Origin: Candidatus Pacearchaeota archaeon
Lineage (GTDB): Archaea; Nanobdellota; Nanobdellia; Pacearchaeales; UBA284
Assembly (NCBI GenBank): GCA_026016245.1
Contig: CP061211.1
Location: 30,001-62,000, forward strand
Direction: 5' to 3'
Length of the DNA stretch: 32,000 bases
Position 1 is the stretch's first letter; every line of letters begins with the position of its first letter. This document shows, piece by piece, positions 1 to 31,758 of this stretch. The notes beneath the pieces are model-generated. The model ran no database searches and was not told the origin of the DNA. It was given only the letters and a program-made list of their open reading frames with translations. The translations under genes and the position numbers were made by a program.

Positions 1-1
1 A

Positions 2-1681: not shown

Positions 1682-1711
1682 ATTATTTTTTCCTGGTAAA
1701 AAAGAGGTGAA

Positions 1712-4390: not shown

Positions 4391-4395
4391 TTTTA

Positions 4396-6660: not shown

Positions 6661-6673
6661 AGTTCTCTAAGCA

Positions 6674-6700
6674 TTTTAATATTTAAAAAACTTTTTAAAT
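6674..6700. promoter_or_regulatory. Back-to-back A/T (TATA-like) boxes in a 45-bp divergent intergenic region
   Basis: TTTTAATATTTAAAAAACTTTTTAAAT. The complement of 6680-6687 reads TTTAAATA about 26 nt from the minus-strand ATG (6660). Plus-strand boxes sit about 26 nt before ATG 6706 and ATG 6721. No SD on either side, so leaderless transcripts are inferred. Confidence 0.4.
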
Positions 6701-6705
6701 GTCAG

Positions 6706-7500
6706 ATGATACTAAGAAATATGGATAGAGATAAAAGAGGACAGGTAACTCTTTTTATTATAATTGCTATTGTTATTGTGGCTGTTGTGATTCTAGCTAT
6801 TGTTCTTGTCCCACAACTTCTTCCTAGAGAAAGAATTCCCCCAACAGTACTTGATCCAGAAGCTTATATTGCTGATTGCGTTAACTTACATTTAGAACCA
6901 TTAGTTGAGGTACTTGCAAGTCAAGGAGGCTATTTGGAAACAGGAAATTGTATTTTTTATGAAGATATCTGCAGGCATTATTTATGTTATACTACTACTC
7001 CTTATATTAATTGCACTAATCAAGAACCTTTACTTAAAGAGCATGTTGAAGAAGAATTAAAAACTAAGCTGCAACAAGAAAATGTGGTTAAAAATTGTAT
7101 TTCTAGTTTTGCTGAAGCTGCAAGAAAACAGAATTGGAATGTTGAAGCATGCTCTGTTCCAAAATTTTCAGTTAATTTGACAGAAGGCAGGATTAATATC
7201 CCTATAGAGTGTGATATAACAATGTCTAAAGGACAGGAAGTTAAAAAATTTGAAGAACTTAATCCTTTTTTAAAATGGCCTTTGTTTGAATTTGTTATAC
7301 TTAGTAAAGAAATTATTAATGAAGAAATAGAAAATTGTGATTTTGATCCCTTAGCTTATATGACTATGCATTATCAGATTGAGATTGAGAAATTTAGAAC
7401 AGGCGATGGAAGTAAGATTTATATACTTCGGGAAAGAGAAACTGGAAAAGAATTTGTATTTGCTGTAAGAAATTGTGTGTTACCAGGAGGGGTATTTTAG
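6706..7500 (+). CDS. Cysteine-rich extracytoplasmic protein with a class III (type IV pilin-like) signal peptide
   Basis: N-terminus M(ILRNM)DRDKRGQVTLFIIIAIVIVAVVILAIVL is a short charged segment, then R-G-Q directly abutting the hydrophobic stretch, as in archaeal prepilin-peptidase substrates. 10 Cys in the mature part. Start could be ATG 6706 or ATG 6721; each has an A/T box about 26 nt upstream. Confidence 0.7.
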   Translation: MILRNMDRDKRGQVTLFIIIAIVIVAVVILAIVLVPQLLPRERIPPTVLDPEAYIADCVNLHLEPLVEVLASQGGYLETGNCIFYEDICRHYLCYTTTPYINCTNQEPLLKEHVEEELKTKLQQENVVKNCISSFAEAARKQNWNVEACSVPKFSVNLTEGRINIPIECDITMSKGQEVKKFEELNPFLKWPLFEFVILSKEIINEEIENCDFDPLAYMTMHYQIEIEKFRTGDGSKIYILRERETGKEFVFAVRNCVLPGGVF

Positions 7501-7501
7501 A

Positions 7502-10500: not shown

Positions 10501-11005
10501 TGTAGAACTTGAAGTTACAACTGCTGAAGGAGCAGATAATGGAATAGCTACTTGTTATTGGTCTAATGCTGATATTGGCATTGAACAAGGAATGACTAAA
10601 TTTACTGAAACTAATACTGTTATTCATAGACAGAACCTTTCTGCTATGAGCCAGATTGTTTACATCAAATGTCATGATTCTGCTTTAAATATAGCAAATA
10701 ATAGGACAAGCTTTACTGTAATTGTTGATACTTTCCCACCAAAAATAACTCGTCTTTACAAATCTGGTGGAAGTCTTATTTTAAAGACAGATGAGAATGC
10801 TGTTTGTGCATATCACTATAGTGCTGGCAGAAAAATACATAATTGTAATTTTGATCCTAAGGATACTCTCAGAGCAAGAAGGTTTGATACCACAGGAACT
10901 AAAGAACATAGAGTTTATGATGATGGAGAGCCTTGGCATGTAATATGTTATGATGAGTGTGATAATATTGGACAGTGTTTCGTAATATCTTCAATAGAAT
11001 CTTAA
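7502..11005 (+). CDS. Giant (1167 aa) polytopic surface protein: N-terminal anchor/signal, >40-Cys ectodomain with GCC modules, Gly/Ala-rich 4-helix membrane bundle, C-terminal ectodomain with four tandem Ig-like modules
   Basis: ATG 7502 lies 1 nt after the upstream stop, with GGAGGGG at 7487-7493 (preferred over the ORF-track GTG 7475). N-terminus MPNRKNKGDMAIALFLSFLAVMMPV. Modules FGCCEETKNKAKC, IGCCIDNEGMC, EGCCTIGYQ, HGCCKSYAGC. Hydrophobic block LGLLNIFAAAFVVWAGGYLGVAVL / AGIVVGWSIIATGVILILWSFWI / AMQSIGAGLISGGAAALAGLTAV / PAVLVGIVIAGIAALLYWLGY at nt ~9150-9530. Four C-terminal repeats follow. Confidence 0.85.
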   Translation: MPNRKNKGDMAIALFLSFLAVMMPVTFTSLQPEFTEEGIKQNSIIETFSEIVLFFDLIPSVAASDYFGCCEETKNKAKCVITLENECKVNKWHNGTACDTVCQIGCCIDNEGMCIKNSINTDCQLGTFIVKDPSCEQSPLCKEGCCTIGYQKRWTTNLTCVNVYNGVWDSAVPDWLTCIKQAYEEQHGCCKSYAGCEYITGQECQGKSGYFFSNMKCYENIPGCEICQLQPTEGKCIEGFPDLYKTDSCGNVYSDEIKKYCTGGFCNPETNQCESGDCFNIYKNYVGGEFGPKESSDKAKSGEAWCVYDTLSDLGNGTAPVGSRHWRRYCLYGQEYNEPCADYRQEVCMGFGEGGQAEYANCAPNGWRLCANVTSKNECNENPFCFWWTDFGEQHEDLGLGSGLKDAIDKVGNDKWRIFAEEKIESGKSKREKGDPQICLPKIPPGYSELNQELGCVGAGSSMCVYEEAWWGLDTENKECRDDEWRITSAHTCRSVGDCGTWFNWVGEPMSGFRIIEVEEGDVEREKKEIMIPQAYTDFVSEHIKGVKGAGGLGLLNIFAAAFVVWAGGYLGVAVLDLVGVDVFFSGVPWAMFSVSKGSLTTAGIVVGWSIIATGVILILWSFWISPGAKQGAMQSIGAGLISGGAAALAGLTAVPAVLVGIVIAGIAALLYWLGYSKEFYYQQCNPSMPPLNGNDCHLCNEDSERPCSKYRCESLGAACSYNDTITVGGKTYQLADSECIATINDGAPPWITEIEAFDMEGRSIFKRTGLGTMPTTININMGGQPIPDGTQLVIQINLNEKAFCMWDIESTANIGEMDFPYQSSVLRDELRQQFLVKQALPQYYVRCADVYGNANIAEYIFKFSTTTGPDLTPPVILGTDRDYNPYFGYSVTELPLSIYISEDAFCRWNPGQDTDYELMSQETECETDITPTGWECETTLTGLQPDIANPFYIRCKDKSPQENVMPSGYLLTLLPTPPLLITSIDPTDGSIIKGCEVSGVELEVTTAEGADNGIATCYWSNADIGIEQGMTKFTETNTVIHRQNLSAMSQIVYIKCHDSALNIANNRTSFTVIVDTFPPKITRLYKSGGSLILKTDENAVCAYHYSAGRKIHNCNFDPKDTLRARRFDTTGTKEHRVYDDGEPWHVICYDECDNIGQCFVISSIES
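9737..11002 (+). repeat. Four tandem ~92-125-aa beta-sandwich-like modules in the C-terminal ectodomain of the giant protein
   Basis: Each module opens with x-PP-x-I (APPWITEIE, LTPPVILGT, PTPPLLITS, TFPPKITRL). Each carries a paired-Cys signature C-x-[WY] ... [YH]-[VI]-x-C-x-D: AFCMWD...YVRCADVYGN; AFCRWN...YIRCKDKS; ATCYWS...YIKCHDSA; AVCAYH...HVICYDECDN. Confidence 0.75.
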
Positions 11006-11900: not shown

Positions 11901-12542
11901 ATGCCAATAAAAATAATTAAGAATTTTTTCAAAAGAATATTTTATGGCATGTTTGCTACTAAGAAACATGTTAAATTAGGTTTTTATGGGCCTCCTAATA
12001 GTGGTAAGACTACTCTTGCTAACAGACTTTGTAAGGATTGGTTAGGAGAAGAGCTTGGAAAAACAAGCAGAGTTCCTCATGAGACAAGAGAAATACAGAT
12101 AAAGGAGAAAGTTGAGATAGATTTTAATGGAAAAAAGTTGACTTTTAAGCTAGTTGATACTCCTGGTATTGCCACAAGAATAGATTATGAGGATTTCTTG
12201 CATTATGGCATGAAGGTTAGAGAGGCTAAGAAAAGAGCTAAAGAAGCTACAAGAGGTGTTATCGAGGCTATAAAATGGTTAGATGACATGGATGCTGTCA
12301 TTATTGTTCTTGATACAACTAAAAATCCTTACACCCAGGTTAATATTACTATCATAGGAAATCTTGTTGCAAGGAAAATTCCTGTGCTTATAGTAGCTAA
12401 CAAGATAGATTTGAGAGGAGCAAGAGGAAAGATAAAAAAGATAGAGGCTGCATTCCCAGAATATGATGTTGTTGCTATAAGTGCAAAAAAAGGCAAAAAC
12501 ATGGAAGAGTTTTATGAGAATCTCTTTGCTCTTGTAAAATAA
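11901..12542 (+). CDS. Small archaeal GTP-binding protein, first gene of the GTPase/DUF2073/DUF2072 trio (OapA-like)
   Basis: P-loop GPPNSGKTT (G1), DTPG (G3), NKID (G4), SAK (G5). AGGAG at 11887-11891. Followed in operon order by DUF2073- and DUF2072-type genes. Confidence 0.85.
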   Translation: MPIKIIKNFFKRIFYGMFATKKHVKLGFYGPPNSGKTTLANRLCKDWLGEELGKTSRVPHETREIQIKEKVEIDFNGKKLTFKLVDTPGIATRIDYEDFLHYGMKVREAKKRAKEATRGVIEAIKWLDDMDAVIIVLDTTKNPYTQVNITIIGNLVARKIPVLIVANKIDLRGARGKIKKIEAAFPEYDVVAISAKKGKNMEEFYENLFALVK

Positions 12543-12552
12543 GAAGAAAAAA

Positions 12553-12969
12553 ATGGCAAAGAAAAAAATAAAAACAAGGAGAAGCGATAAAGGGATAACA
12601 ATACAATTCATCCCATATTCAGAAATAGCTTATCTCACTAGCTTTAGACGTGTGAAGAAGTTAGTTGATTTAGCTGTCGAGAACAAGATTTTGCTTGTTC
12701 AGGGAAAGCTTGCTCCTGAAGAGGAAGTTGACTTGATTGAGGAAACAATGAAACATATAGTTAAGAGTAAAAAATCAAAGTTTAGAGGAATTGAGTTAGC
12801 TACATTCTCACCGAGATCAAAAGAATTACCTTTTTTTACTTCAATGAAAGAGAAACTTGCAACAAGTTTATTTGGTGATAGAGATGTTATCACAGTTATT
12901 GGTCCTGCTACAATTGTCCGTGAAATTAAAAAAGATCCCACTAAGATACAACTCCTTTTAAGGAAATAA
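12553..12969 (+). CDS. DUF2073-family archaeal protein (OapB-like)
   Basis: ITIQFIPYSEIAYL...ILLVQGKLAPEEEVDLIEETMKHI...FRGIELATF matches my memory of the DUF2073 core (l.peEE..LIe.TM....F.GIE). It lies 10 nt after the GTPase stop. Confidence 0.7.
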   Translation: MAKKKIKTRRSDKGITIQFIPYSEIAYLTSFRRVKKLVDLAVENKILLVQGKLAPEEEVDLIEETMKHIVKSKKSKFRGIELATFSPRSKELPFFTSMKEKLATSLFGDRDVITVIGPATIVREIKKDPTKIQLLLRK

Positions 12970-12987
12970 TAAAAATAATAATTAAAA

Positions 12988-13419
12988 ATGCCTCATCAAT
13001 GTGTTCGCTGCGGAAGAATCTATGATAGTGCTGCTCCTGAAGTTCTAGAAGGCTGTTCTTGCGGTTCTCATTACTTTTTCTTCTTTAAGGATGAAGACTT
13101 GGCTATGCAAAAGGAAACTGAAAAGCTTACTAGAGATGAAAGAGAAGAGATTGTCAAGGATGTTAGTGAAATAGTCGGGCCAGATATAGAGAAGCCAATA
13201 ATCCTTGATTTAGAAAGTATCAGAGTACAGAAACCAGGAAAGTTTGAGATTGATTTGGTTAGAATCTTCAAGAGAAAACCTATTATATACAAGATAGAGG
13301 AAGGAAAGTATATCATAGATCTTGCATCAACTTTCCAGATGAAATTAAAGGAGAAAAAGATTGAAAAGTTAAAAAAGGTTGAAGTTCCAGAACCTAAAGA
13401 ATCTAAAGAAGAGGATTAA
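12988..13419 (+). CDS. DUF2072-family Zn-ribbon protein (OapC-like)
   Basis: MPHQCVRCGRIYDSAAPEVLEGCSCGSHYFFFF is the characteristic MPHxCxxCG...GC.CG..F N-terminal zinc ribbon. It has a K/E-rich C-terminus. Confidence 0.75.
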   Translation: MPHQCVRCGRIYDSAAPEVLEGCSCGSHYFFFFKDEDLAMQKETEKLTRDEREEIVKDVSEIVGPDIEKPIILDLESIRVQKPGKFEIDLVRIFKRKPIIYKIEEGKYIIDLASTFQMKLKEKKIEKLKKVEVPEPKESKEED

Positions 13420-20229: not shown

Positions 20230-21048
20230 TTATCTTATTTTTATCTTACTTAGTGGTTTCATTGTTGCCCAACTTGTCTGGAAGATCTGTCCTAGTGCGT
20301 TGGTAAAGAAAGGACTGTTAATCCATATTCCAACATCATAATTTGGATGCACTTCCTCATCATCTAGGATCATAAACATCATCTCTTTGTTGTCCATAAA
20401 TGCAAATCTTGCTTTGAACTTGCCATTTTTGATCTCTGCCACTTTGCTTAGGTCTTTGGCGACTTTGTAGTTCTTTGGGGTTATTGGTGCAGCTATCTGA
20501 ATTTTTACACCTTTTTTCTTCGCTTTTTCCATTGCTGTCTTTAATGATTCAAATTTTCTGTTTAAGCCATCTGCACTTGTCACGATTGTTACATTCTTGC
20601 TGGCATTCCTAATCATCATATCAAGATGATTGTAGATGTTATGCCTTCCTCTTATTGCTCCACTTAAGTCTGTAGGTTCAATGTATTTTATTCCGTTTGT
20701 GTAAAGATTACCTAGTTCAGAAAGAACATCGCTTTCTTTTAACTCATCCAATCTTTTTGATGTTGACTGTGCATTCCTCATAACATTCCTCTTAACTCTC
20801 TCCACTACTTCAGTTGGTTTTAGAGCCACGAACTTAATTGGTTTTCCTAGTTTTAGTACAACAAAACCTTTTTTTTCTAAAGATTCAAGAATGTCATATG
20901 TTCTACTTCTTGGAACACTGCTTATATCACTCAACTCACCTGCTGTGCTTACCCCTCTTGATAACAATGCAGTCCATACTTTTACTTCATAGAGATTCAA
21001 ACCAAAAATCTTCCTAAGTCTGCTTAAAAACTCGTCCTTAACAATCAT
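20230..21048 (-). CDS. TrmB-family transcriptional regulator
   Basis: N-terminal winged HTH LYEVKVWTALLSRGVSTAGELSDISSVPRSRTYDILESLEKKGFV is the characteristic TrmB domain. It has a C-terminal TrmB-type effector-like domain. Confidence 0.85.
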   Translation of the reverse strand: MIVKDEFLSRLRKIFGLNLYEVKVWTALLSRGVSTAGELSDISSVPRSRTYDILESLEKKGFVVLKLGKPIKFVALKPTEVVERVKRNVMRNAQSTSKRLDELKESDVLSELGNLYTNGIKYIEPTDLSGAIRGRHNIYNHLDMMIRNASKNVTIVTSADGLNRKFESLKTAMEKAKKKGVKIQIAAPITPKNYKVAKDLSKVAEIKNGKFKARFAFMDNKEMMFMILDDEEVHPNYDVGIWINSPFFTNALGQIFQTSWATMKPLSKIKIR

Positions 21049-21122: not shown

Positions 21123-23972
21123 TTATTTTAAGACGCTGAAAGCTATCTTTATCGTCTGTTTTTTAATTTTAGTTTTATATCCATGTTTTTTCTTTTCTTT
21201 TACCTCTTTTCCTAGTGTAAGTTTTGAAGCATTAACCCTCTCCTTAACAAAACTCTCAAATTTTTTGACATATTCTTGAATTTTTTTCTCGCAATCTATT
21301 GTCAAGGAAATTTTTTGTTCCTTTTTCAAGCCAGCTTTTTTTCTTGCTCCCTGAATAAATCTTGTTATTTCTCTGACATAGCCCTCTGCTTCAAGTTCAG
21401 AAGTAATTTTTGTATCCAGAGTTACTTCTAGAATTTTTTTCTCACCTACTTTTTTCTTTATATTTATTTTTTTAATATTAGTTTGTTTTAGAATTACATT
21501 ATTGAATTGCGGATTTAATTTTTGGTTTGTTTCTACTGTCAAATTTGCAAGAGGCCATCTGATACCCCTAGCTTTTTCAGATCTTGCTGCCAAAGTTTTT
21601 TCAATAATTTCCTGAGCTAAAGCAAAATCTTGTTCAAGCTTGCTATTCATTATTTTTTTATTTTCTTTAGGCCAGGAATGAAGATGAATAGATTCTTCCT
21701 TTAGTTTGAATTTTGTTTTTAATTCCTGATATAGAGATTCTGTTATGAATGGGCAGATTGGAGCAAGAAGTTTTAATAGCTCTGTATAAACATAATATAT
21801 CACACTGAGTGTTTTTTCATTTTTTTCACTTATTTTGTCTCTTACAAATTGGATATACCCCCTACTAAAATCATTAAGCCAGAAGTCTATCAGTGTTTTT
21901 GTTGCAGTGTGTGGATGTAAATTATCTAATTCTTGTGTCATTTTTTTTATTATTGTATTTAATCTTGATAAAATCCACTTATCTTCTATGTTTTCTGTTT
22001 TTAATTGCTGTATTTTATTTGATTCTAAAACAAGCCTACTTATGTTCCAGAAAATATTTAATGCGCGACTGGAATCTTTTGTGCTGTTCCAGCCAAACCA
22101 TAATTCTGCTGTAGGATCTTGCGAGCAGAATACAAGCCTTAAAGGATCTGCCCCAAGTTTTTCAAGAGCTTCCTTAGCCCAGATAGCATTTCCCAAAGAT
22201 TTATGCATTTCTTTTCCTTTTTCATCTTTTAATGTTTCATAACCCATTATTGATTTATAAGGAGTTTTTCCAGTCAAGGTCACAGATGCCCAGAATAATG
22301 CATTAAACCATCCACGGTACTGGCCAGGCATATTTTCACAGATAAAGTCTGGGGGGAACCACTTTTCCCACTCTTTCCGGTTTGTTAGATAACCTATTGT
22401 TGAGAAAGGAACTATGCCGGCATCTAACCAAGCGTCACCAACATCAGGAACTCTTTTCATTTCTCTACCACATTTAGGACATTTTAGAATCACATTATCA
22501 ACCCATGGCCTATGTATTTCTTTTAACTGCTTTATTCCTTTTATTGCTTTCTTTTTTAATTCTTCTAAAGACCCTATAACCTCCAAAAAGTTGCATTTTT
22601 CACATTCCCAGAATGGAAGAGGCAAACCATAATATCTTTTTCTAGAGATCAGCCAATCAGACATAGCATCAAACCAGTCTTCCTGCCTTTTCTTTCCATA
22701 TTCAGGGAACCACTTAATTTTTTTATTCTCTTTTTTTAGTTTCTCTCTAATTTCATCAGCTTTGATATACCACTCATCCACAAGTCTAAAAACAAGTTCC
22801 TCTCCACACCTCCAGCAATGAGGATATCTATGAAAATAAGATTCAATCTTGTAGATAAAACCTCTTTTTTCCATATCTTTTAACACGAGTTTGTTTACTT
22901 CTGAATAAGATTTTCCACTAAAAGCTTGCCAGTTTTCTAGATAAACTCCTGCCTGGTCAAGAGGAGAGACTGCAGGAAGATTTTCTTTTTTTCCTAAATC
23001 ATAATCCTCTGCTCCACAGCCAGGAGCAATGTGAACAATGCCCGTGCCTTCTTCTTCTGATGCAAGCCCCCAGGATAGCACAATGAAAGGTGACTTTGCT
23101 TTTTTTTGTTCAGGTAATTCAGAATAAGGCATTTCATATCTCATTCCTACTAATTCTTTTCCTAGTTTTTCTTCTATAATCTTATAATCTTTTTTAAGAA
23201 TATTCTCTACTTGGCTCTTGACTAGCCAGTATTTTTTCCCTTTATATTCTACTTTAGCATACATTAGGTTAGGATTGACTGCAATAGCAACATTTGCAGG
23301 AACTGTCCAGGGAGTTGTTGTGAATATTAAGAAGTATTTATCTTTCTTGCCTTTCACAGGAAATCTCATGAATAATGCTGTATGTTTAACTTCTTTATAG
23401 CCTGCTGTAACAATATCGTGTTTTGAACTTGCTGTACCACACCTAGGGCACCAAGGGACAGCATCCTTACCTTTATACAGCCAACCTTTCTTGTAATATT
23501 CTTTCAGAAGATGCCAATTATGCAGGTTATTTTCATCAGTATTTGTATAGTAAGAATTATCCCAATCCATCCACTGCCCAAGTCTTATAGAATCCTCTGT
23601 CTGGAGTTTAGCAAATTTTCTTGTTCTAGCCTTGCATCTTTCTGCAAATTTTAAAACTCCAAACTTCTCAATATCCTCTTTTCTCTTGAATCCGAGATCT
23701 TTTTCCTCCTCTCTTTCAATCCAAAGCCCTTGGCAATCAAATCCATTTTGGAATCTTTGGTCATAGCCCTGCATTGCCTTGAATCTCTGGAACAAGTCTT
23801 TGTAAGTTCTACCCCAAGCATGATGCACCCCCATCGGATTATTAGCTGTTATAGGGCCATCTAGAAAAGAAAATCTTTTATTACCTTTATTTTTCTGTCT
23901 AAGTTTTTCAAATATCTTCTTCTCTTTCCAAAACTTCAATATTTGTGGTTCTGTGGATATAGGATTGTACAT
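21123..23972 (-). CDS. ileS: Isoleucine--tRNA ligase
   Basis: FLDGPITANNPMGVHHAWGRTYKD (HIGH region). WCPRCGTA. Editing-domain motif GTGIVHIAPGCGAEDYDLG. DWLISRKRYYGLPLPFW. ENMPGQYRGWFNALFW. KEMHKSLGNAI (KMSKS region). Zn knuckles CWRCGEE and CPKCGRE. A TATA-like TTTAAAAG (complement of 23994-24001) begins 29 nt upstream of the ATG. Confidence 0.88.
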   Translation of the reverse strand: MYNPISTEPQILKFWKEKKIFEKLRQKNKGNKRFSFLDGPITANNPMGVHHAWGRTYKDLFQRFKAMQGYDQRFQNGFDCQGLWIEREEEKDLGFKRKEDIEKFGVLKFAERCKARTRKFAKLQTEDSIRLGQWMDWDNSYYTNTDENNLHNWHLLKEYYKKGWLYKGKDAVPWCPRCGTASSKHDIVTAGYKEVKHTALFMRFPVKGKKDKYFLIFTTTPWTVPANVAIAVNPNLMYAKVEYKGKKYWLVKSQVENILKKDYKIIEEKLGKELVGMRYEMPYSELPEQKKAKSPFIVLSWGLASEEEGTGIVHIAPGCGAEDYDLGKKENLPAVSPLDQAGVYLENWQAFSGKSYSEVNKLVLKDMEKRGFIYKIESYFHRYPHCWRCGEELVFRLVDEWYIKADEIREKLKKENKKIKWFPEYGKKRQEDWFDAMSDWLISRKRYYGLPLPFWECEKCNFLEVIGSLEELKKKAIKGIKQLKEIHRPWVDNVILKCPKCGREMKRVPDVGDAWLDAGIVPFSTIGYLTNRKEWEKWFPPDFICENMPGQYRGWFNALFWASVTLTGKTPYKSIMGYETLKDEKGKEMHKSLGNAIWAKEALEKLGADPLRLVFCSQDPTAELWFGWNSTKDSSRALNIFWNISRLVLESNKIQQLKTENIEDKWILSRLNTIIKKMTQELDNLHPHTATKTLIDFWLNDFSRGYIQFVRDKISEKNEKTLSVIYYVYTELLKLLAPICPFITESLYQELKTKFKLKEESIHLHSWPKENKKIMNSKLEQDFALAQEIIEKTLAARSEKARGIRWPLANLTVETNQKLNPQFNNVILKQTNIKKINIKKKVGEKKILEVTLDTKITSELEAEGYVREITRFIQGARKKAGLKKEQKISLTIDCEKKIQEYVKKFESFVKERVNASKLTLGKEVKEKKKHGYKTKIKKQTIKIAFSVLK

Positions 23973-24042: not shown

Positions 24043-24300
24043 TTACATCAATTCCTCATCCTCTTCTTGGCCCCAGTCATCAAATTCTTCTTGCTCTTCC
24101 CCTACTTCATTACCAAATATACTTTCTTCTTTTTTAGCCCAAGGCTTATCTGTTTCTTCAGATTCTTCAAGACTATCTTTTTTTTCCTTAAACCCTTTCT
24201 TTTCAACTTTAGCTACTTTTATTTTTCTCTTACTTGCTTTTGCTTTCTTTATCTTTGTTTTTCTTGCCTTTCTTGCTCTTGTTTTTTTCTTTCTTGGCAT
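24043..24300 (-). CDS. Small (85 aa) charge-bipolar protein: poly-basic N-half, acidic Trp-containing C-half
   Basis: MPRKKKTRARKARKTKIKKAKASKRKIKVAKVEKK ... EESEETDKPWAKKEESIFGNEVGEEQEEFDDWGQEEDEELM. GAGGT-AAG-ATG SD (complement of 24304-24308) and TTTATAAA at 24344-24351 support the minus-strand reading over the F-rich plus-strand mirror ORF. Confidence 0.6.
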   Translation of the reverse strand: MPRKKKTRARKARKTKIKKAKASKRKIKVAKVEKKGFKEKKDSLEESEETDKPWAKKEESIFGNEVGEEQEEFDDWGQEEDEELM

Positions 24301-24436: not shown

Positions 24437-24931
24437 TTAACTTTTAGTGTTAAAAATTTCAGTTGGTGTTAGTAATGAGATCGCTGCTTTATCACTAACA
24501 ATTTCCACTTTAATGATCTTATCTGGATTCTTTAGATCAACTTTCTGTTTGTCCACTACCTCTGTTAACTTGATGATTATGTCTTTAGGATATTTCTGAG
24601 TCACTTTTCTTTTTGCTAGATCCATCTTCCATTTCTCTTCTGGTTTTATTCCTTCTTGTATTTTCTTTATACAATTCTGTATGTCTTCTAGAGATGAACC
24701 GCACCACTCATCAACAGGCCACCAGTAAAAAGTGTATTTGAATTTTGCTTTGTCAATGTTTGACAATGCCTTTATTACTTCTCTAGGATTGTCTGCTTCA
24801 AGCTCTGCTAATCCATCCTCTACTTTTTCTATTTTTAATCCCTTATCTACCTCTTTTGCAATTGCCTCTATTTCTGCTTTTACAGATTCTTCATGTACAG
24901 GATCAAAAGTAACCAATAAATTTGACTCCAT
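24437..24931 (-). CDS. Probable THUMP-domain RNA-binding protein (small archaeal COG1818-like)
   Basis: The N-terminus MESNLLVTFDPVHEESVKAEIEAI and C-terminus KIIKVEIVSDKAAISLLTPTEIF resemble short archaeal THUMP proteins (NLLVT...E..a..Ei ... veI.g..agIs.l). Strong SD GGAGGTG (complement of 24935-24941). Family call is from memory only. Confidence 0.5.
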   Translation of the reverse strand: MESNLLVTFDPVHEESVKAEIEAIAKEVDKGLKIEKVEDGLAELEADNPREVIKALSNIDKAKFKYTFYWWPVDEWCGSSLEDIQNCIKKIQEGIKPEEKWKMDLAKRKVTQKYPKDIIIKLTEVVDKQKVDLKNPDKIIKVEIVSDKAAISLLTPTEIFNTKS

Positions 24932-25030
24932 TTACACCTCCTATTCAGAAAAATAGAGAATGCTATAAATAACTTTCTGTGAGCAAAAGAGGAAATCGTT
25001 GTCACTTAAAAGTAGATAGTGAACGAAAAC

Positions 25031-25038
25031 TTTATAAA
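25031..25038 (+). promoter_or_regulatory. TATA box (TTTATAAA, preceded by GAAAAC BRE-like purines) for the beta-barrel-like gene
   Basis: It starts 29 nt upstream of ATG 25060, and no SD is present. Confidence 0.5.
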
Positions 25039-25059: not shown

Positions 25060-26349
25060 ATGACATTGGGACTTATACCTCTTATCTTACTTGCTGGTGG
25101 AAATGAACCAGAAGCAACAATTCCTGATACATGTTATGTTTGGGAAGATATAACAAAAAAAGGAACTGTTGTGTGGGTAAAAGGATTCTATGGTTATGCT
25201 TTAGGCGAGAATCGTAAAGAATCTCTTGAAGAGGATTACCCAAGATGGATCAATCCTTTCTTATTAACACATGGATATCCTGCTTTAGATGTAACTTATG
25301 ATCTTATCATAGATTCTGAAAAAGCCATCAAATCAGAACACGATTATCAAAATGGTGTGAAATCCTACACCTTTCCTATGTGTCATGATGCTTTCATAAG
25401 AAGAGTAGTTGAGCCAGTAGAGCAAAAACTCATAGAAGAACCAAAAAAACCAAAAATAAAACAAGATACTACATTTTTGCCACCAGTAGTATTACAAGAC
25501 ACTACTAAAGGACCAGATATTGTTATACAAGACACTATACCAGGACAACCGATTATTGTACAAGATACTATAATATTAGAACCAGAAATATTGTCACTTC
25601 CTGAAGGCCCAAAAGGATTATTCGCGATGGATAAAAATTTTGGAAGTATTGGTGTTTTTTACAGAGATGACAGAGAAAGAGATGAAAAATATTTGGCCAT
25701 GAATCCAAAACTAAATTTCTTTATCCCTCTAGACAAGAATAAAGCAGATATAGGATTAGGAGCTTATGTTTTAAATAATGAGAAGGGTGATGAGAATTTT
25801 ATAGGTAAAGGTCGTGCTGGTATCCACACATCTTATGCAGGTGGTGGTGTTGAGATTTCAAGTGATATTGATGGAAGAGTTGATGTAGGACCTTATGCAG
25901 TTGTTGGAATTCCTCTACAATATGTAACTATTGGTGCAAAAGGAGAAGTAGGTATTAATGCTAATGAAAATATAAAGATGAGGCCTTCACTTGAAGGTTT
26001 TATTTTTTACAGAGCTCCTAGAGATAATTTCAGATTCAAATTGAGTGCGAGAAATGGTGTGGATCTTCTTAAAGGACATTATGTTAACAAAGCTAATCTT
26101 GATTTTATGATAGGCTCTTTACTTTTTGGTTTAGAAGGAAAAACAAACAAGGGAGCAGAGATATGGCCTCATGAAGAAGTGGGAAATGTTATAAAGAGTA
26201 TTGAAGGAAAAGCCTATATTGGCGGAAGATGGAAATTAGACAAAAATACTGGTCTTTATCTAAAAGGCCATGTTTCAGGAAAACATGATAGAGATAGAAC
26301 ATTGAAGGCAGTTGAAGGTGGAATTGAATTAGGTTTAGATTTCTATTAA
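25060..26349 (+). CDS. Protein with an unknown N-terminal domain, four 11-aa QDT linker repeats and a C-terminal ~235-aa outer-membrane beta-barrel-like domain
   Basis: ATG 25060 is preferred over GTG 24979: TTTATAAA at 25031-25038 begins 29 nt upstream, matching the other leaderless genes. The C-terminal region is a series of amphipathic strands separated by short G/D/N/K turns (FRFKLSARNG, SIEGKAYIGGRWKLDKNTGLYLKGHVSGKHD, AVEGGIELGLDFY), ending in an aromatic residue. Confidence 0.7.
   Translation: MTLGLIPLILLAGGNEPEATIPDTCYVWEDITKKGTVVWVKGFYGYALGENRKESLEEDYPRWINPFLLTHGYPALDVTYDLIIDSEKAIKSEHDYQNGVKSYTFPMCHDAFIRRVVEPVEQKLIEEPKKPKIKQDTTFLPPVVLQDTTKGPDIVIQDTIPGQPIIVQDTIILEPEILSLPEGPKGLFAMDKNFGSIGVFYRDDRERDEKYLAMNPKLNFFIPLDKNKADIGLGAYVLNNEKGDENFIGKGRAGIHTSYAGGGVEISSDIDGRVDVGPYAVVGIPLQYVTIGAKGEVGINANENIKMRPSLEGFIFYRAPRDNFRFKLSARNGVDLLKGHYVNKANLDFMIGSLLFGLEGKTNKGAEIWPHEEVGNVIKSIEGKAYIGGRWKLDKNTGLYLKGHVSGKHDRDRTLKAVEGGIELGLDFY
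25462..25593 (+). repeat. Four exact-period 33-nt (11-aa) tandem repeats QDT-x8
   Basis: CAAGA(T/C)ACT starts at 25462, 25495, 25528 and 25561, exactly 33 nt apart. Units: QDTTFLPPVVL / QDTTKGPDIVI / QDTIPGQPIIV / QDTIILEPEIL. Confidence 0.9.
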
Positions 26350-26369: not shown

Positions 26370-26375
26370 TTTTTT
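26370..26375 (+). terminator. Oligo-T tract after the beta-barrel-like gene
   Basis: A T6 run lies about 20 nt after the stop at 26349. Confidence 0.3.
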
Positions 26376-26492: not shown

Positions 26493-26762
26493 TCATTTTC
26501 TGAAAGCTTTCTTGAATTCTCTTGCTAATTCAGAATTAATTTTCTGAATCTTGGCAATTGTGTCAGCAAGAATTTTTTTTGAATCTTTTCCAGATGTTTT
26601 TAAAACTAATCGGGGATTTTTAGTTGGGTGTTTTCTACTCCAGGCAGCAACTTCTGTGGCTTTATCTTTCCATAACATACTCCTAAGAAGTTCAGCCATT
26701 GTAAGATTATCTAATTCAATTTCAAGCTCATTCTTTTTGTATTTTATTAACTTGACTTCCAT
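26493..26762 (-). CDS. rpoL: DNA-directed RNA polymerase subunit L (Rpo11)
   Basis: MEVKLIKYKKNELEIELDNLTMAELLRSMLWKDKATEVAAWSRKHPTKNPRLVLKTSGKDSKKILADTIAKI follows the RpoL pattern (..l.ie..ed.Tl.n.LR..L..d..V.fA.y...HP....p.l.ikT.g..p...l..a...). ATG 26762 is preferred; the ORF-track start at 26780 is TTG. Confidence 0.7.
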   Translation of the reverse strand: MEVKLIKYKKNELEIELDNLTMAELLRSMLWKDKATEVAAWSRKHPTKNPRLVLKTSGKDSKKILADTIAKIQKINSELAREFKKAFRK

Positions 26763-26790
26763 CTTTATTATAAAACTCAAGAAATCCTAT

Positions 26791-27426
26791 TTAAATTTTT
26801 TCCTCTTCCCGTATCTCCTTCATTACCTCTTCCCCCACTTCTTCTTTCTCTTCTGCTGGCTTTTCCTCTACTTTCTCTATTTCTTTATCTGTTCTTTTCA
26901 TCCTTTCTAGCAAATCACGAATTCTCGTATGTTTTGTTGTTTCTATATTAAAGTCTATGGTTTCTTCTTTTTTTTCTGCTGGCTCTCCTTTCTCTTCTTT
27001 TTCAAGGTGCTTTATAAATTCTTTTTCATCCAGAACTTTTTCTTTCTCTTTCTTTTCTTCTACCTCAGTTTCTGCCTTTTCTTTTTCTTCTTTCTCTTTA
27101 AGCAATCTTCTTCTTTCTTTCACTTTTTCATATCTCTTTCTAAGATCTTCAAGAGTTACTTTTGATGACGGTTTTTCTAATGGTTTTGGTTTAAATCCAG
27201 ACATTTCTTCTAAAATTTCATGCACAGAACGTCTTGGAATATCTTCTTCCCTAACATCAAGTGGTTTTTTTATTAATATTACAGGATTTGCTATGACACA
27301 TCTCTGACAGATTTTTTTAAGTTTGCCATCTATAACAGCACTAACAAGAACACCCCTATAGCCACATTCCTCACATTCCTCTTCCTTATTAATGTTCATA
27401 GATTTTATGGACTCAAACATAAACAC
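26791..27426 (-). CDS. Zn-ribbon protein with a long Glu/Lys-rich tail (N-terminus resembles the archaeal MBF1 zinc ribbon)
   Basis: CEECGYRGVLVSAVIDGKLKKICQRC has two CxxC pairs 18 aa apart flanking a V-I-D-G strand, like the aMBF1 N-terminal ribbon. No cro/C1-type HTH follows. Instead there is a ~115-aa E/K low-complexity tail (EKEEKEKAETEVEEKKEKEK...). Confidence 0.6.
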   Translation of the reverse strand: MFMFESIKSMNINKEEECEECGYRGVLVSAVIDGKLKKICQRCVIANPVILIKKPLDVREEDIPRRSVHEILEEMSGFKPKPLEKPSSKVTLEDLRKRYEKVKERRRLLKEKEEKEKAETEVEEKKEKEKVLDEKEFIKHLEKEEKGEPAEKKEETIDFNIETTKHTRIRDLLERMKRTDKEIEKVEEKPAEEKEEVGEEVMKEIREEEKI

Positions 27427-27483: not shown

Positions 27484-28545
27484 ATGTTATCCATAATATT
27501 ACCAACAAAAAATGAAGCAACAAATATTAGGAATCTTTTTAATAGAATTTCTAGAATAAAGAAAAAGATTGGAGATTTTGAGATAATCCTTGTTGATAGT
27601 GATAGCAAGGATAACACTATCAAAGTAGCTAAAAATTTTAGTAGAGTTTATAAATTAAAAGTTCAAGTTTTTAATTCTGGTAAGAAGGATTTGAGTAATT
27701 CAGTTCTTGTTGGTTTAAAAAAAGCTAAAGGCAGTATTGTTTGTATAATGGATTCTGATTTGCAGCATCCTCCAGAGATGATCCCTTTAATGATAAAGAC
27801 CTTGAATAGAGAGAATGCTGATATCATAATTGCTTCAAGATTTGTTAAAGGTTCTAAACTTAGATTTGGACCCTGGAGAATCTTTGTTTCAAAGGTTTAT
27901 TGTTTACTTGCACATTTATTTATTCCTAAATCTTTGTATATCAAGGATCCTGCAACTGGCTTCTTTGTTTTCAGAAAAAAAATTCTGAAGAAAGCAAGAT
28001 TAAGGCCTCTGGGTTTCAAAATTCTTCTAGAGATTCTGGCAAGAGCAAAATATGATAAAGTTATTGAGGTTCCTTTTTCATTTAAAGAAAGGAGAGAGGG
28101 AAAGAGCAAATTTAATTTCAAGCAGACTTTTATGGCTTTCAGGCATTTGCTTAGACTTGCCAAAAGTGGAAGAGAACATTATCGTTTCTTGAAATTCTGT
28201 GCTGTTGGAGCTAGTGGAATTGTAGTGAATGAAGGCCTGCTTTGGCTTTTGACAGAGTTCGCTGGCCTATTTTATCTTATATCTGGGGCTATTGCTATTG
28301 AATCTTCTATCTTATCTAATTTTATTTTGAATGATTTATGGACTTTTAGAAAAGAGAGAAAAGGAAAATACTTGAAAAGGCTCTTGAGGTTTAATGTAGC
28401 TAGAATTTTTGCATTGGGTATTAATTTTTCAGTCTTATTGGCTCTAACTTCTTTAGGTGTGCACTATCTTATCTCTAATCTTTTTGGTATTGTTCTGGCT
28501 ACCATGTTTACCTATCTCAGCAGTTTATGGTGGGTTTGGAAATGA
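27484..28545 (+). CDS. GT2 polyprenol-phosphate glycosyltransferase (Dpm1/ArnC-like) fused to a C-terminal GtrA-like membrane domain
   Basis: LSIILPTKNEATNI, ILVDSDSKDNT and IMDSDLQHPPEMIPLM (DxD region) are GT2 dolichol/undecaprenol-phosphate sugar synthase motifs. C-terminal RFLKFCAVGASGIVVNEGLLWLLTE plus three further TM segments form a GtrA-like domain. Confidence 0.85.
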   Translation: MLSIILPTKNEATNIRNLFNRISRIKKKIGDFEIILVDSDSKDNTIKVAKNFSRVYKLKVQVFNSGKKDLSNSVLVGLKKAKGSIVCIMDSDLQHPPEMIPLMIKTLNRENADIIIASRFVKGSKLRFGPWRIFVSKVYCLLAHLFIPKSLYIKDPATGFFVFRKKILKKARLRPLGFKILLEILARAKYDKVIEVPFSFKERREGKSKFNFKQTFMAFRHLLRLAKSGREHYRFLKFCAVGASGIVVNEGLLWLLTEFAGLFYLISGAIAIESSILSNFILNDLWTFRKERKGKYLKRLLRFNVARIFALGINFSVLLALTSLGVHYLISNLFGIVLATMFTYLSSLWWVWK

Positions 28546-29897
28546 AAAAAAATAAGAAAAAAGAATTTATAATTATAGGAATTTTCCTTCTAGTCCTTTT
28601 AATTTTATTTTTAATTCTCAATTGGTTTAGTCCTATGTTATTATGGGATGAGAATGTTTATCTAGGAAATGCAAGAAGTCACATTTCTAATAGTGCATTT
28701 ACAGAGGATTTTAGATTTCCTCTCTTAGAGTATCTTATAGCTTTTGCATGGTTTTTTTCTGGAGAAAGTATTTTTATTGCTCAGCTGATTATTATTCTTT
28801 TTAGTCTTGCATCAGTTTTTTTTCTTTATCTTATAAGCAAAAGATTTTTTTCAGAGAGATTTTCCTTTCTGCTTTGCTTCTTCTTTGCTTTATGCCCTTT
28901 AATTCTTTTTTGGGGTTTTCGTGCTTATGCTGATATTCCTGCAATGTTTTTTGTTATCCTCTCATTTTACTTCTTGTTAAAATCAGAAAAAAATAATAAA
29001 ATTATTTTTCTAGCTTTAGCTGGCTTTGTGGCAGCTCTTGCTTTCTTAACTAGGTTTCCAACTGCTTTATTTGCTTTATCTGCTGGCCTTTACTTTATTT
29101 TCAAAAAAAGATTTAAAGATTTAGGTATTTTTACTCTTTTTTTTATTGTTGCTCTTTTGCCTTGGCTTACATGTAATTATTTGAGTTATGGAAATTTTAT
29201 ATGGGACCTTCAGGAGCAGTATCTTGTGATAAGTAAATGGACTTCTTCTGAGCCTATAATCAAGCAGATAACTAACCTATTTGTCTATATTAATTTTTTA
29301 ATCCCTTTACTATTGCTTCTTGGAATTTATGTTACAATAAGAAAGAATGAAAAATTTAATTTATTAATTTTGATTTATGTTATCTTGTCTTTTATTTATT
29401 ATCTCTTTTTTGTTAGGCTGAAAGATGCTCGTTATTATCTTACATTTTTACCCTTCATTTATCTTATTTCTTTTCAAGGCTTATATTATCTGAAGAAAAA
29501 GAAAATTTTTAGATATGTGTTTATGATTCTGATTATTATTCTGGTTTTAAACACTGTGTTTATTTTTGGTTATTTGGCTGGTAAGAATTATTGTGAAAAA
29601 AATAGCTCAATTACTCAATCTATAAATTATTTAAAAGGTGAAGTAGATGTAGATGATGTTGTGTTGAGTAATGTTTGGCCTTGGTTTGGTTATCATCTTA
29701 ATGTTAAGGTCTTTAGTTTATGGGATAAAAATATTGGGATATTGCTGGAGACGTATGAACCGGTTTATGTTGTTTATTGTGATGGACTGGGCATAGAATA
29801 TGAAAAAGAAATTCTTGATAATTCTACAAATCTGAAATTAGAACAAGTTTTTAGAGGAAGATGTGGAGAGAAAGTTTATATTTATAGAGTAATTTAA
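28542..29897 (+). CDS. GT-C fold glycosyltransferase (PMT/ArnT-like, GT39/GT83 type)
   Basis: About 10+ TM segments. First extracytoplasmic loop has an acidic DE motif (MLLWDENVYLGNARSH). Soluble C-terminal domain. ATG 28542 overlaps the upstream TGA (ATGA); an in-frame ATG at 28527 is an alternative start. Confidence 0.7.
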   Translation: MKKNKKKEFIIIGIFLLVLLILFLILNWFSPMLLWDENVYLGNARSHISNSAFTEDFRFPLLEYLIAFAWFFSGESIFIAQLIIILFSLASVFFLYLISKRFFSERFSFLLCFFFALCPLILFWGFRAYADIPAMFFVILSFYFLLKSEKNNKIIFLALAGFVAALAFLTRFPTALFALSAGLYFIFKKRFKDLGIFTLFFIVALLPWLTCNYLSYGNFIWDLQEQYLVISKWTSSEPIIKQITNLFVYINFLIPLLLLLGIYVTIRKNEKFNLLILIYVILSFIYYLFFVRLKDARYYLTFLPFIYLISFQGLYYLKKKKIFRYVFMILIIILVLNTVFIFGYLAGKNYCEKNSSITQSINYLKGEVDVDDVVLSNVWPWFGYHLNVKVFSLWDKNIGILLETYEPVYVVYCDGLGIEYEKEILDNSTNLKLEQVFRGRCGEKVYIYRVI

Positions 29898-30651: not shown

Positions 30652-31758
30652 TTAATATTTTACATTAATACCCTTATAACTAAGAATTCTAATTACTGAA
30701 GAATCAATTCTTTTTTCATCAATAATACCATCTTTTACTGCTTTTTCAATGATTTTTATCATATGATAAATATTTTTTATGTTTGGGTCAGTATTAAGAA
30801 TGATATCATTATCAGCTTTGAACAGATCCATATACATCTGATCTTCATTTGTATAATAGTCTCTTAATCCTAACATTCTGATTTCATCTGTGATTATTAA
30901 TCCATCAAACTTATTTCTTAATTCATTTGTCAATTGTTCTGAAACAACAGCTGGCTTTGATTCTGAATTTAAAATTCCTTCTGTGATTACATGTGAAACC
31001 ATAATAGCAGACACATTACTTTTGATACTTTCTTCAAAAGGAAATAAATCATTACTATCTATTTTAACATAAACAACATATTTATGAGGATCTTGAATAG
31101 AAAGTGTTTTTCCTGGATAGTGTTTGGAAGTTGCAATAATGCCATTTAATTGTAGGCCATTAATATAAGCATTAGCTTTTTCTGAAATTTCTTCTGGCGT
31201 GCCAATAAAACTTCTACAATTCCATATTTCATCCTTAAGGTCAACTACTGGAGCAAAATTTATTGTAAATCCTAAGGTTTTAAGTAACTTCCCTTCTTCA
31301 TAACCTACCTGATAGGCTTCTTCTTTAGTTTTAATTTCTTTCAGAGAAGGAAAATGATGGAAGTTTTCAAAAGGATTCCAGCAGCCTTCTAAATCAGTAG
31401 AAATAAATAAAGGGATATAAGCGTCTTTTTGGAAATAATTAATTTTATCAATAAATTCTTGAGCATTACTTTTTGCACCAAGATGAATTCCCCCTATTAA
31501 CATGTTCTGCAAAGCATTTTTATTTTCTTCTTTCCCAGATGTAATGATCATTTGGGCAATTTTTTGTTTCAAGGTTAAGGAATTAAGATATAGGGTATTT
31601 GTGGATTTATCATAAATGACCTTGGTTGGAGGTTGAATTTCAAGGGGTTTATCTTTTTCAAAATTTATAAAAACTAAAATTAGACACAATATTATAAGCA
31701 GAAAAGTTAAAAGAATCCCTATATTGATCTTGCTTATTTTATTTGATTTTGACATCAT
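30652..31758 (-). CDS. Membrane-anchored glycoside hydrolase family 3 N-terminal-domain enzyme (NagZ-like beta-N-acetylhexosaminidase)
   Basis: N-terminal anchor INIGILLTFLLIILCLILVFI. GH3 motifs LKQKIAQMII, ISTDLEG, NFAPVVDL, SKHYPGKTLSIQDPH (KH-x-PG ... D-x-H dyad region) and GLIITDEIRMLG (nucleophile Asp region). Confidence 0.8.
   Translation of the reverse strand: MMSKSNKISKINIGILLTFLLIILCLILVFINFEKDKPLEIQPPTKVIYDKSTNTLYLNSLTLKQKIAQMIITSGKEENKNALQNMLIGGIHLGAKSNAQEFIDKINYFQKDAYIPLFISTDLEGCWNPFENFHHFPSLKEIKTKEEAYQVGYEEGKLLKTLGFTINFAPVVDLKDEIWNCRSFIGTPEEISEKANAYINGLQLNGIIATSKHYPGKTLSIQDPHKYVVYVKIDSNDLFPFEESIKSNVSAIMVSHVITEGILNSESKPAVVSEQLTNELRNKFDGLIITDEIRMLGLRDYYTNEDQMYMDLFKADNDIILNTDPNIKNIYHMIKIIEKAVKDGIIDEKRIDSSVIRILSYKGINVKY

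Follow-up and report, generated by a model that had tools for sequence, protein, structure and literature searches.

A gene in the genome of an uncultivated archaeon encodes a protein whose C-terminal domain is predicted to form a 14-stranded antiparallel β-barrel of the bacterial outer-membrane protein (OMP) type. The gene lies in a 32,000-nucleotide stretch (hereafter the window) of contig CP061211.1 (assembly GCA_026016245.1, positions 30,001 to 62,000), and its 429-residue product is identical to the NCBI hypothetical protein IB618_00260 of a Candidatus Pacearchaeota archaeon metagenome-assembled genome (710,724-bp contig). A first-pass annotation, made from the letters of the window alone, had proposed an OMP-type barrel-like protein native to an archaeon. 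This proposal is supported: the AlphaFold2 (AF2) model and its Foldseek matches, a conserved dyad pattern in the strands, aromatic girdles, loop asymmetry, synteny, and codon usage all agree. The sequence family is new, whereas the fold class is known, though not established in Archaea or in an architecture of this kind. We are moderately confident that it is an exported, porin-like transmembrane barrel residing in a bilayer outside the cytoplasmic membrane.

The predicted barrel

The AF2 model of the 429-residue protein was built on an alignment of 10 sequences. The last ~235 residues had first been read as about 10–12 amphipathic strands; every strand quoted as an example falls inside an AF2 strand, but the strand count in the model is 14 (Table 1). 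The barrel domain contains 14% Gly and an even number of strands, and measures 245–258 residues in nine members of the family and 294 residues in the tenth (P0003), owing to a long C-terminal tail.

A Foldseek search of the PDB with the full model gave 70 matches at E ≤ 1e-3. The best 50 of the 70 are all bacterial outer-membrane barrels, including OmpC, chitoporin, OmpT, TodX (E = 1.1e-4), the OprD/Occ family, AlgE, OMPLA, NanC, OmpG, and the autotransporter 9oqa. No β-sandwich, solenoid, or jelly-roll fold occurs among the 50 PDB matches listed, and the AF2 fold is itself neither a β-sandwich nor a jelly roll. Template modeling (TM) scores normalized to the target are 0.49–0.52 for OmpG and NanC. 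The query-normalized values (0.33–0.34) are diluted by 190 non-barrel residues, and by our own estimate would rescale to ~0.6 for the 237-residue barrel. Matches in the BFVD viral library belong to the same class (porin O/P, autotransporter β-domains, and OMP barrels).

The two faces of the predicted strands differ strongly in composition. On one face, formed mostly by Leu, Ile, Val, Ala, Gly, and Phe, 4 of 87 residues are charged, versus 31 of 82 on the other. The mean difference in hydrophobicity between the faces is 3.11, compared with 1.47 ± 0.29 after within-strand shuffling, and none of 5000 shuffles reaches the observed value. With the faces defined on the window protein alone, the charged fractions in the nine other members are 0.04 and 0.30 (Mann–Whitney p = 4e-12). 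Small aliphatic side-chains could not fill the width of a 14-stranded barrel; most plausibly, therefore, the lumen is water-filled and lined by the charged face, with the aliphatic face meeting lipid. Family-wide, aromatic residues on the hydrophobic face reach fractions of 0.30 and 0.39 at the two strand ends and 0.11 in mid-strand, forming two girdles. A screen for hydrophobic moment over the 115 open reading frames (ORFs) of the window and homologous loci ranks the barrel protein first, by a measure that discriminates poorly (isoleucyl-tRNA synthetase, IleRS, comes second).

Connections between strands are short on the side of the termini (2, 3, 2, 5, 2, and 4 residues) and somewhat longer on the opposite side (4, 4, 5, 6, 6, 19, and 5 residues). 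The 19-residue connection joins strands 11 and 12, is flanked by the family-conserved motifs K-T-N-x-G-x-E-I and S-I-E, and by strand parity lies opposite the termini. In the model it is a candidate for an in-folding constriction or gating loop.

All 10 members carry the motif x-G-Φ-x-Φ-x-[F/Y/I] in the last strand. The closing aromatic residue is strictly C-terminal in four of the 10, is followed by one extra residue in two, and by 3 to ~40 in the remainder. The C-terminus had been called a classic bacterial β-signal, which holds for the form of the motif throughout the family and for the terminal position of the aromatic residue in those four members only. One member (P0009) ends K-L-G-V-T-Y-H-F, formally identical to the enterobacterial β-signal consensus. 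The motif may reflect structural constraints on the closing strand rather than recognition by an insertase.

Family, genomic setting, and promoter

An exhaustive hidden Markov model search of 1.84 billion cluster representatives identified 10 proteins in the family, including that of the window, with lengths of 411–481 residues. Scans for further loci added two from GTDB genomes and one from JGI metagenomes; where named, these are labeled Pacearchaeota or "Woesearchaeota." Attempts to widen the family by word-indexed searches, using either a 10-member profile or a barrel-only profile, returned known members only. None of the 10 members scores above threshold against Pfam or NCBIfam, including OMP_b-brl, Porin_1/4, Porin_O_P, OmpA_membrane, Toluene_X, and Autotransporter. 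The sole OMP-type family among weak matches is PF24653 (Phage_OMP), at E = 0.16 for one member. A profile search against PDB sequences gave no matches at E ≤ 10, and a single-sequence search likewise gave none. The most distant member, P0010 (L008, 158-1540), comes from a 1.7-kb contig on which the gene as called does not yield the protein on record (451 residues by ORF scan, 460 recorded); the C-terminal tail of this member, WFLILNFYL, may stem from a frameshift or an error of assembly.

In all six members with recorded flanks, the window's own included, the gene occupies the same slot between a THUMP-like gene and rpoL. Longer contigs extend this synteny to IleRS and a small Lys/Glu-rich gene on one side, and to a GT2/GtrA and PMT_2 glycosyltransferase pair on the other. 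The shared gene order comes from independent assemblies of different samples. The archaeal character of the THUMP and rpoL flanks, recognized at the outset, is confirmed and extends to the remaining window (OapB/OapC, PAC2, TrmB, arginyl-tRNA synthetase, and IleRS). GC content is level across the whole window; the barrel gene has a GC fraction of 0.344 (0.18 at third codon positions, GC3), and its codon usage has a cosine of 0.943 to the pooled other genes, the second highest of 25. Because the synteny is identical in independent assemblies, and codon usage and GC3 are native, the gene is, on this sequence evidence, native to the archaeal genome and vertically inherited. On the same grounds of conserved synteny and native codon usage, the contig is not chimeric.

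The promoter is also archaeal in form. The first-pass annotation had described an archaeal leaderless promoter with a box 29 nt upstream of the gene, and this is borne out: the sequence TTTATAAA and its spacing to the ATG, conserved in the homologous locus L001, have the geometry of an archaeal TATA box and imply a leaderless transcript. A GTG at 24979, offered by the ORF list as an alternative start, would add a Lys/Arg-rich n-region; it was rejected because an in-frame TAA directly precedes the ATG in L001, where the TATA–ATG spacing is kept at 29 nt. The TATA box forms part of an element of ~40 nt, found in a single copy in the window and in each locus, always directly upstream of the barrel gene. 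Its 3' half corresponds to a purine run resembling the transcription factor B recognition element (BRE), followed by the TATA box. The 5' half (TTGTCAyTTwwAAGTAGAT, 24999-25017) extends beyond BRE and TATA and is near-invariant in seven loci, though the proteins are 23–40% identical. This half appears to be a gene-specific element, possibly a regulator binding site; a TrmB-family regulator gene is present in the window at 20230-21048. A second conserved sequence, TATAAATAgCTTT (24964-24976), probably serves the divergent THUMP gene. An Rfam scan of the window, made to see whether the conserved upstream element is an RNA, gave no matches, and scans for sigma-70 promoters and rho-independent terminators are uninformative on archaeal DNA.

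While its promoter is near-invariant, the product evolves rapidly. Between the same pairs of loci, identities are 60–84% for RpoL, 54–77% for the THUMP protein, and 27–41% for the barrel protein; in L004, the flanks and IleRS are 77–84% identical to those of the window and the barrel protein 36%. Mean pairwise identity is lowest in the N-terminal domain and the spacer (17–18%, with 17% for the domain), intermediate in the far-side loops (20–25%), and 32% on both strand faces. The combination of a fast-evolving product and a frozen, consensus-strength promoter suggests, at the level of sequence, a surface-exposed protein that is under diversifying pressure and is either abundant or tightly regulated. 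Hints of an extracytoplasmic location are the hydrophobic N-terminus shared by every member, the spacer with its Pro/Thr repeats, and evolution much faster than that of the flanking genes.

Table 1. Features of the barrel gene, its product, and its immediate flanks (positions in the window; residues of the 429-residue protein)
Feature	Position	Strand	Residues	Remarks
THUMP-domain gene	24437-24931	-		Flank of the barrel gene
Upstream element, ~40 nt	24999-25038	+		TTGTCAyTTwwAAGTAGATAnnAAACGAAAGATTTATAAA; near-invariant in an alignment of 7 loci
TATA box	25031-25038	+		TTTATAAA; 29 nt 5' of ATG; identical spacing in L001
Coding sequence	25060-26349	+	1-429	429 residues and stop; ATG 25060, TAA 26347-26349
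Hydrophobic N-terminus	25060-25101	+	1-14	MTLGLIPLILLAGG; small residues at -3/-1 before NEPE; signal-peptide-like
N-terminal α/β domain	25126-25407	+	23-116	~95-100 residues; predicted β-β-α-α-β-β-α; AF2 predicted local distance difference test (pLDDT) 70-93
Pro/Thr-rich spacer	25408-25614	+	117-185	About four ~11-residue repeats, [IV]-[IV]-Q-D-T-[TI]; AF2 pLDDT ~32, predicted disordered
Pre-barrel motif	25615-25632	+	186-191	G-L-F-x-[LM]-D; short helix of ~5 residues; G186 invariant; best conserved segment class
Predicted 14-stranded antiparallel β-barrel	25636-26343	+	193-428	AF2 pLDDT 80-91; hairpin-connected meander
Barrel strands 1-7			193-204, 209-224, 227-240, 245-256, 260-268, 274-286, 289-300	
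Barrel strands 8-14			307-318, 324-334, 341-351, 354-362, 382-392, 397-409, 415-428	
Loop between strands 11 and 12	26146-26202	+	363-381	NKGAEIWPHEEVGNVIKSI; 19 residues; two short helices (AF2)
Last strand and C-terminus	26302-26346	+		LKAVEGGIELGLDFY; β-signal-like form x-G-Φ-x-Φ-x-aromatic
T6 run	26370-26375	+		21 nt past the stop codon, read from sequence; likely archaeal oligo-T terminator
rpoL	26493-26780	-		Other flank of the barrel gene

Architecture, membrane placement, and alternative readings

The hydrophobic N-terminus is present in all 10 members, where it spans 10–19 residues and mostly lacks a positively charged n-region. It is followed in the window protein by a domain first described as ~150 residues of unknown type, which is in fact ~95–100 residues long and preceded by the 14-residue hydrophobic stretch. 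A separate AF2 model of this N-domain has a pLDDT of 72.5. Cys25 and Cys108, located at the outer ends of two of its modeled strands, could form a disulfide. A Foldseek search of the PDB returned no significant structural relatives of the N-domain; the best matches, LAGLIDADG nucleases (E ≥ 0.055, TM ≤ 0.29), are taken as noise.

The N-domain is linked to the barrel by a spacer that the first-pass annotation had already recognized as a Pro-rich QDT repeat linker. The underlying DNA contains a 33-nt tandem repeat (2.5 copies, 25493-25573) inside a longer run of about four units of ~11 residues, and the segment is modeled as disordered. Analogous repeats occur in homologs, for instance PVYVPGDTI and KPVYKIVEEES. 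If extended, the ~65-residue spacer could bridge a distance of as much as ~20 nm. Two genes downstream of the barrel gene, in the window as in L001, L006, and L009, lie overlapping genes (27484-29897, plus strand; overlap 19 nt) for a GT2 glycosyltransferase with a GtrA/DPMS transmembrane domain (dolichol-phosphate-sugar-synthase-like) and a PMT_2 protein (protein O-mannosyltransferase/ArnT-like). It is speculative that this pair could O-glycosylate the Thr-rich spacer.

Taken together, the four parts of the chain (a signal-like N-terminus, a small novel α/β domain, a disordered spacer, and a C-terminal barrel) suggest the following arrangement, in which export, membrane insertion, pore function, and the choice of membrane are what we infer. 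The chain would cross the cytoplasmic membrane unfolded, export being suggested by its N-terminal sequence, and the barrel would then fold into a bilayer outside that membrane. The aliphatic face and the two aromatic girdles would sit in lipid, while the charged face (Lys, Arg, Glu, and Asp, with a slightly positive net charge) would line a water-filled lumen. The termini and short turns would remain on the side of insertion, and the short loops and the conserved 19-residue loop would emerge on the far side. This loop, and possibly the GLFxLD segment, may act as a constriction, gate, or latch. Because both barrel termini are on the same side, the N-domain would be placed on the insertion side, toward the archaeon. 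The N-domain and spacer would thereby tether the barrel to the archaeal surface across the length of the extended spacer.

Which bilayer would receive the barrel is a separate matter, on which sequence tools do not discriminate between two meanings offered in the first-pass annotation, a secreted pore-former (here also host-directed) and a double-membrane envelope. Complete genomes of Pacearchaeales have a median size of ~739 kb and encode neither ATPase nor glycolysis (bioRxiv 10.64898/2026.05.13.725050); the 710,724-bp contig is close to this median in length. A barrel inserted into the membrane of a host cell at a contact site would act as both diffusion pore and anchor, feeding a symbiont without ATP synthase and glycolysis. 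We lean slightly, and tentatively, toward this placement because a single barrel gene and no insertase were seen, the far-side loops are short, divergence is rapid, and the order is host-dependent. Short far-side loops would ease spontaneous insertion, and rapid divergence would be as in interaction proteins.

An alternative, which concerns the choice of membrane only, is that the clade is diderm and that the protein is a porin and tether in the archaeon's own outer membrane, its spacer and N-domain binding a component of the wall or surface layer (S-layer) in the manner of OmpM/SlpA and OmpA. This placement, though rather doubtful taken alone, is almost as likely as the host's membrane; it accounts about as well for the architecture and for the housekeeping-like fixation of the gene in the genome. 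The succession of N-domain, extended spacer, and C-terminal barrel with termini on the same side mirrors bacterial tethers between outer membrane and wall, and a single-copy gene fixed among housekeeping genes behind a near-invariant, strong promoter is as expected of a constitutive structural protein. A few archaea, among them DPANN-related lineages, are moreover reported to have double membranes (PMC8871954, PMC4243693). Against it stand the single barrel gene and the absence of an insertase in the window and loci read; the variability of the N-domain, the highest of any part (17% mean pairwise identity) and not what one would expect of a binder of a conserved internal wall component; and the restriction of the family to a narrow clade. 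A second membrane would also cost a lipid-scavenging organism still more lipid.

Several observations weigh against a membrane barrel of either placement. The model was built on just 10 aligned sequences, its TM-scores against solved barrels are moderate, and closure of the barrel by pairing of strands 1 and 14, its shear number, and the identity of its outward face are predictions of the model. The N-terminus is an atypical signal peptide, with an h-region of ~12 residues and no Lys/Arg n-region, unlike those of neighboring secreted proteins. The 32-kb window and the homologous loci read show no Omp85/BamA-like insertase, no periplasmic chaperone, and no second barrel gene, and passage of a monomeric barrel with a hydrophobic exterior across an aqueous gap or S-layer without a chaperone is mechanistically awkward. 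With 10 representatives the family is very narrow, and so, judged by detectable sequence similarity, not general to the order. The atypical signal peptide and the lack of a known assembly route are the weakest links. That a clade of Pacearchaeales has a genuine transmembrane β-barrel porin, of an origin independent of all bacterial OMP families and inserted without Omp85 or the β-barrel assembly machinery (BAM), is in our view an even call.

The shallow alignment, the moderate TM-scores (with root mean square deviations of 7–12 Å), and the predicted nature of closure would also suit a protein that is not in a membrane at all, namely a secreted β-sheet, sandwich, or amyloid-like module of a wall, sheath, or S-layer, whose hydrophobic face packs on another sheet or subunit and which AF2 has over-closed; β-rich sheath and wall proteins are known in archaea. 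This reading is unlikely, since 14 successive nearest-neighbor hairpins with turns of 2–6 residues, two girdles, and an even number of strands, each with a charge-free face, together form a specific transmembrane-barrel signature, and sandwiches, solenoids, and jelly rolls are missing from the 50 PDB matches listed.

Less likely still is display of the autotransporter kind, with the spacer threading the lumen and the variable N-domain shown as an adhesin on the far, outer side. The order of passenger-like domain, linker, short helix, and barrel does resemble type Va systems, autotransporter β-domains are among the Foldseek matches (9oqa; BFVD), and the N-domain and spacer evolve fastest, like exposed adhesins. 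The barrel, however, has 14 strands and not 12, the pre-barrel helix has ~5 residues rather than the ~25–30 of a pore-spanning helix, no member matches Pfam Autotransporter, the N-domain is small and not a β-helix, and a second membrane would still be required.

Finally, that a bacterial gene has been misplaced, through recent horizontal acquisition from a diderm bacterium (an option raised by the first-pass annotation) or a chimeric or contaminated contig, would account for a fold class that is otherwise bacterial or organellar, but is effectively refuted already: there are no bacterial homologs among the 1.84 billion representatives and no Pfam, NCBIfam, or PDB sequence match for any member, the archaeal slot is shared by the members with recorded flanks across independent assemblies of different samples, the gene matches its genome in codon usage and GC, and the BRE/TATA promoter is archaeal and conserved.

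Known barrel systems and neighboring genes

Among proteins of known structure, the 14-stranded monomeric channel OmpG, along with the 12-stranded NanC and OMPLA, offers the closest comparison to the predicted barrel. Like them, the predicted barrel is an antiparallel meander with girdles, short loops, a lumen face that carries charge, and an aromatic residue close to the C-terminus. The long loop between strands 11 and 12 occupies the position of the OmpG gating loop L6, possibly by coincidence. In contrast to these channels, with which it has no sequence similarity, the archaeal protein carries an additional N-domain and repeat spacer, comes from an archaeal host, and has no known BAM machinery. 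FadL and TodX, which have 14 strands and an N-terminal hatch, share the strand number, and TodX is among the best Foldseek matches. However, there is no Toluene_X Pfam match, and the N-domain is separated from the barrel by the ~65-residue disordered spacer, with no sign of plugging.

The full architecture is closer to that of OmpM/SlpA (an N-terminal SLH domain and stalk) and of OmpA (in reversed order), which likewise join a soluble cis-side domain to an outer-bilayer barrel through an extended connector. The archaeal protein differs in lacking an SLH or OmpA-C domain (Pfam, Foldseek), in having a disordered Pro/Thr repeat instead of a coiled coil as connector, and in its highly variable N-domain. 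Type Va autotransporters share the sequence of N-terminal domain, linker, and C-terminal barrel, and their β-domains are found by Foldseek; they differ in their 12 strands, long pore helix, β-helical passenger, and PF03797 domain, for which the archaeal protein has no match. The protein is thus a member of none of these families.

Bacterial barrels acting in a host membrane have precedent. Neisseria PorB is a porin-type barrel reported to reach the membrane of another organism. Chlamydia OmpA has been reported to reach mitochondria (PMC12890168). Both differ from the archaeal protein in being first assembled by BAM in the outer membrane of the producer, for which no counterpart is known here.

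Transmembrane β-barrels are regarded as a hallmark of outer membranes, as found in diderm bacteria, mitochondria, and plastids. To our knowledge, the few known archaeal outer membranes contain no OMP-type barrels. Ihomp1 of Ignicoccus hospitalis is a small α-helical protein that forms oligomeric rings and not a β-barrel; it is unrelated in sequence to the barrel protein and a different kind of protein. The Ihomp1 (Imp1227) pore complex of the I. hospitalis outer membrane is the only characterized archaeal outer-membrane pore (PMC4243693, citing Burghardt et al. 2007), and double membranes among archaea are listed in reviews for Ignicoccus, ARMAN, and Altiarchaeum only (PMC4243693, PMC8871954). 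In keeping with the initial statement that transmembrane β-barrels are not established in archaea, full-text searches of the literature turned up no OMP-type barrel reported for DPANN or other Archaea, and no paper linking Pacearchaeota with porins or DPANN with OMP-type barrels. A "barrel-like" docking structure seen in Microcaldus by cryo-electron tomography is a 21-nm complex of unknown composition from a different DPANN phylum; no link is drawn.

If the interpretation as a membrane barrel is correct, this would be the first transmembrane β-barrel of Archaea, and would imply either an unseen archaeal outer membrane in DPANN or a pore made by a symbiont in its host's membrane as a conduit for metabolite piracy. 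A native OMP-like barrel, conserved and strongly promoted in a host-dependent DPANN lineage, would bear on the evolution and assembly of β-barrel membrane proteins without Omp85 machinery, on the envelope architecture of uncultivated Pacearchaeales, and on the supply of metabolites from hosts to those DPANN symbionts without ATP synthase, glycolysis, or lipid synthesis of their own. As a small protein (245 residues), the barrel is open to production, refolding, and testing.

The window contains other genes of surface proteins. A block at 530-11005 encodes four or five large surface proteins with very many cysteines and with signal peptides and/or C-terminal membrane anchors. Its members include proteins of 383 residues, 892 residues (with a PKD domain), 754 residues, and 1176 residues; the 754-residue protein combines weak terpenoid-cyclase-like repeats, Cys-rich repeats, and a Pro/Lys-rich tail. 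The block is typical of DPANN surface "dark matter." None of these proteins resembles the barrel protein, and the signal peptides of the neighboring surface proteins contain Lys/Arg.

Two Lys/Glu-rich proteins without a Pfam match, of 85 residues (24043-24300, minus strand) and 211 residues (26791-27426, minus strand), are syntenic on either side of the THUMP–barrel–rpoL core; the larger has an N-terminal CxxC...CxxC zinc-ribbon-like motif. IleRS (21123-23972, minus strand) is 81% identical to the enzyme at the same position in L004 (146-2992) and 42–43% identical to those in L001 (407-3292) and L009 (4114-6903). RpoL and the THUMP protein of L001 and L009 are nonetheless 54–80% identical to those of the window, and in some lineages IleRS may have been replaced in place by a distant xenolog.

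At 11901-13419 (plus strand), a GTPase gene (MMR_HSR1) is followed by OapB and OapC in an arrangement resembling the origin-associated oapABC operon, and a replication origin may be near. The locus tag of the barrel gene (00260) also indicates that the window lies close to the contig start. Toward the end of the window, a protein with a glycoside hydrolase family 3 N-terminal domain (30652-31758, minus strand; NagZ/β-hexosaminidase-like) has an N-terminal membrane anchor and is probably extracellular. It may act on fragments of bacterial murein or of chitin, which bears on the identity of the host or food source.

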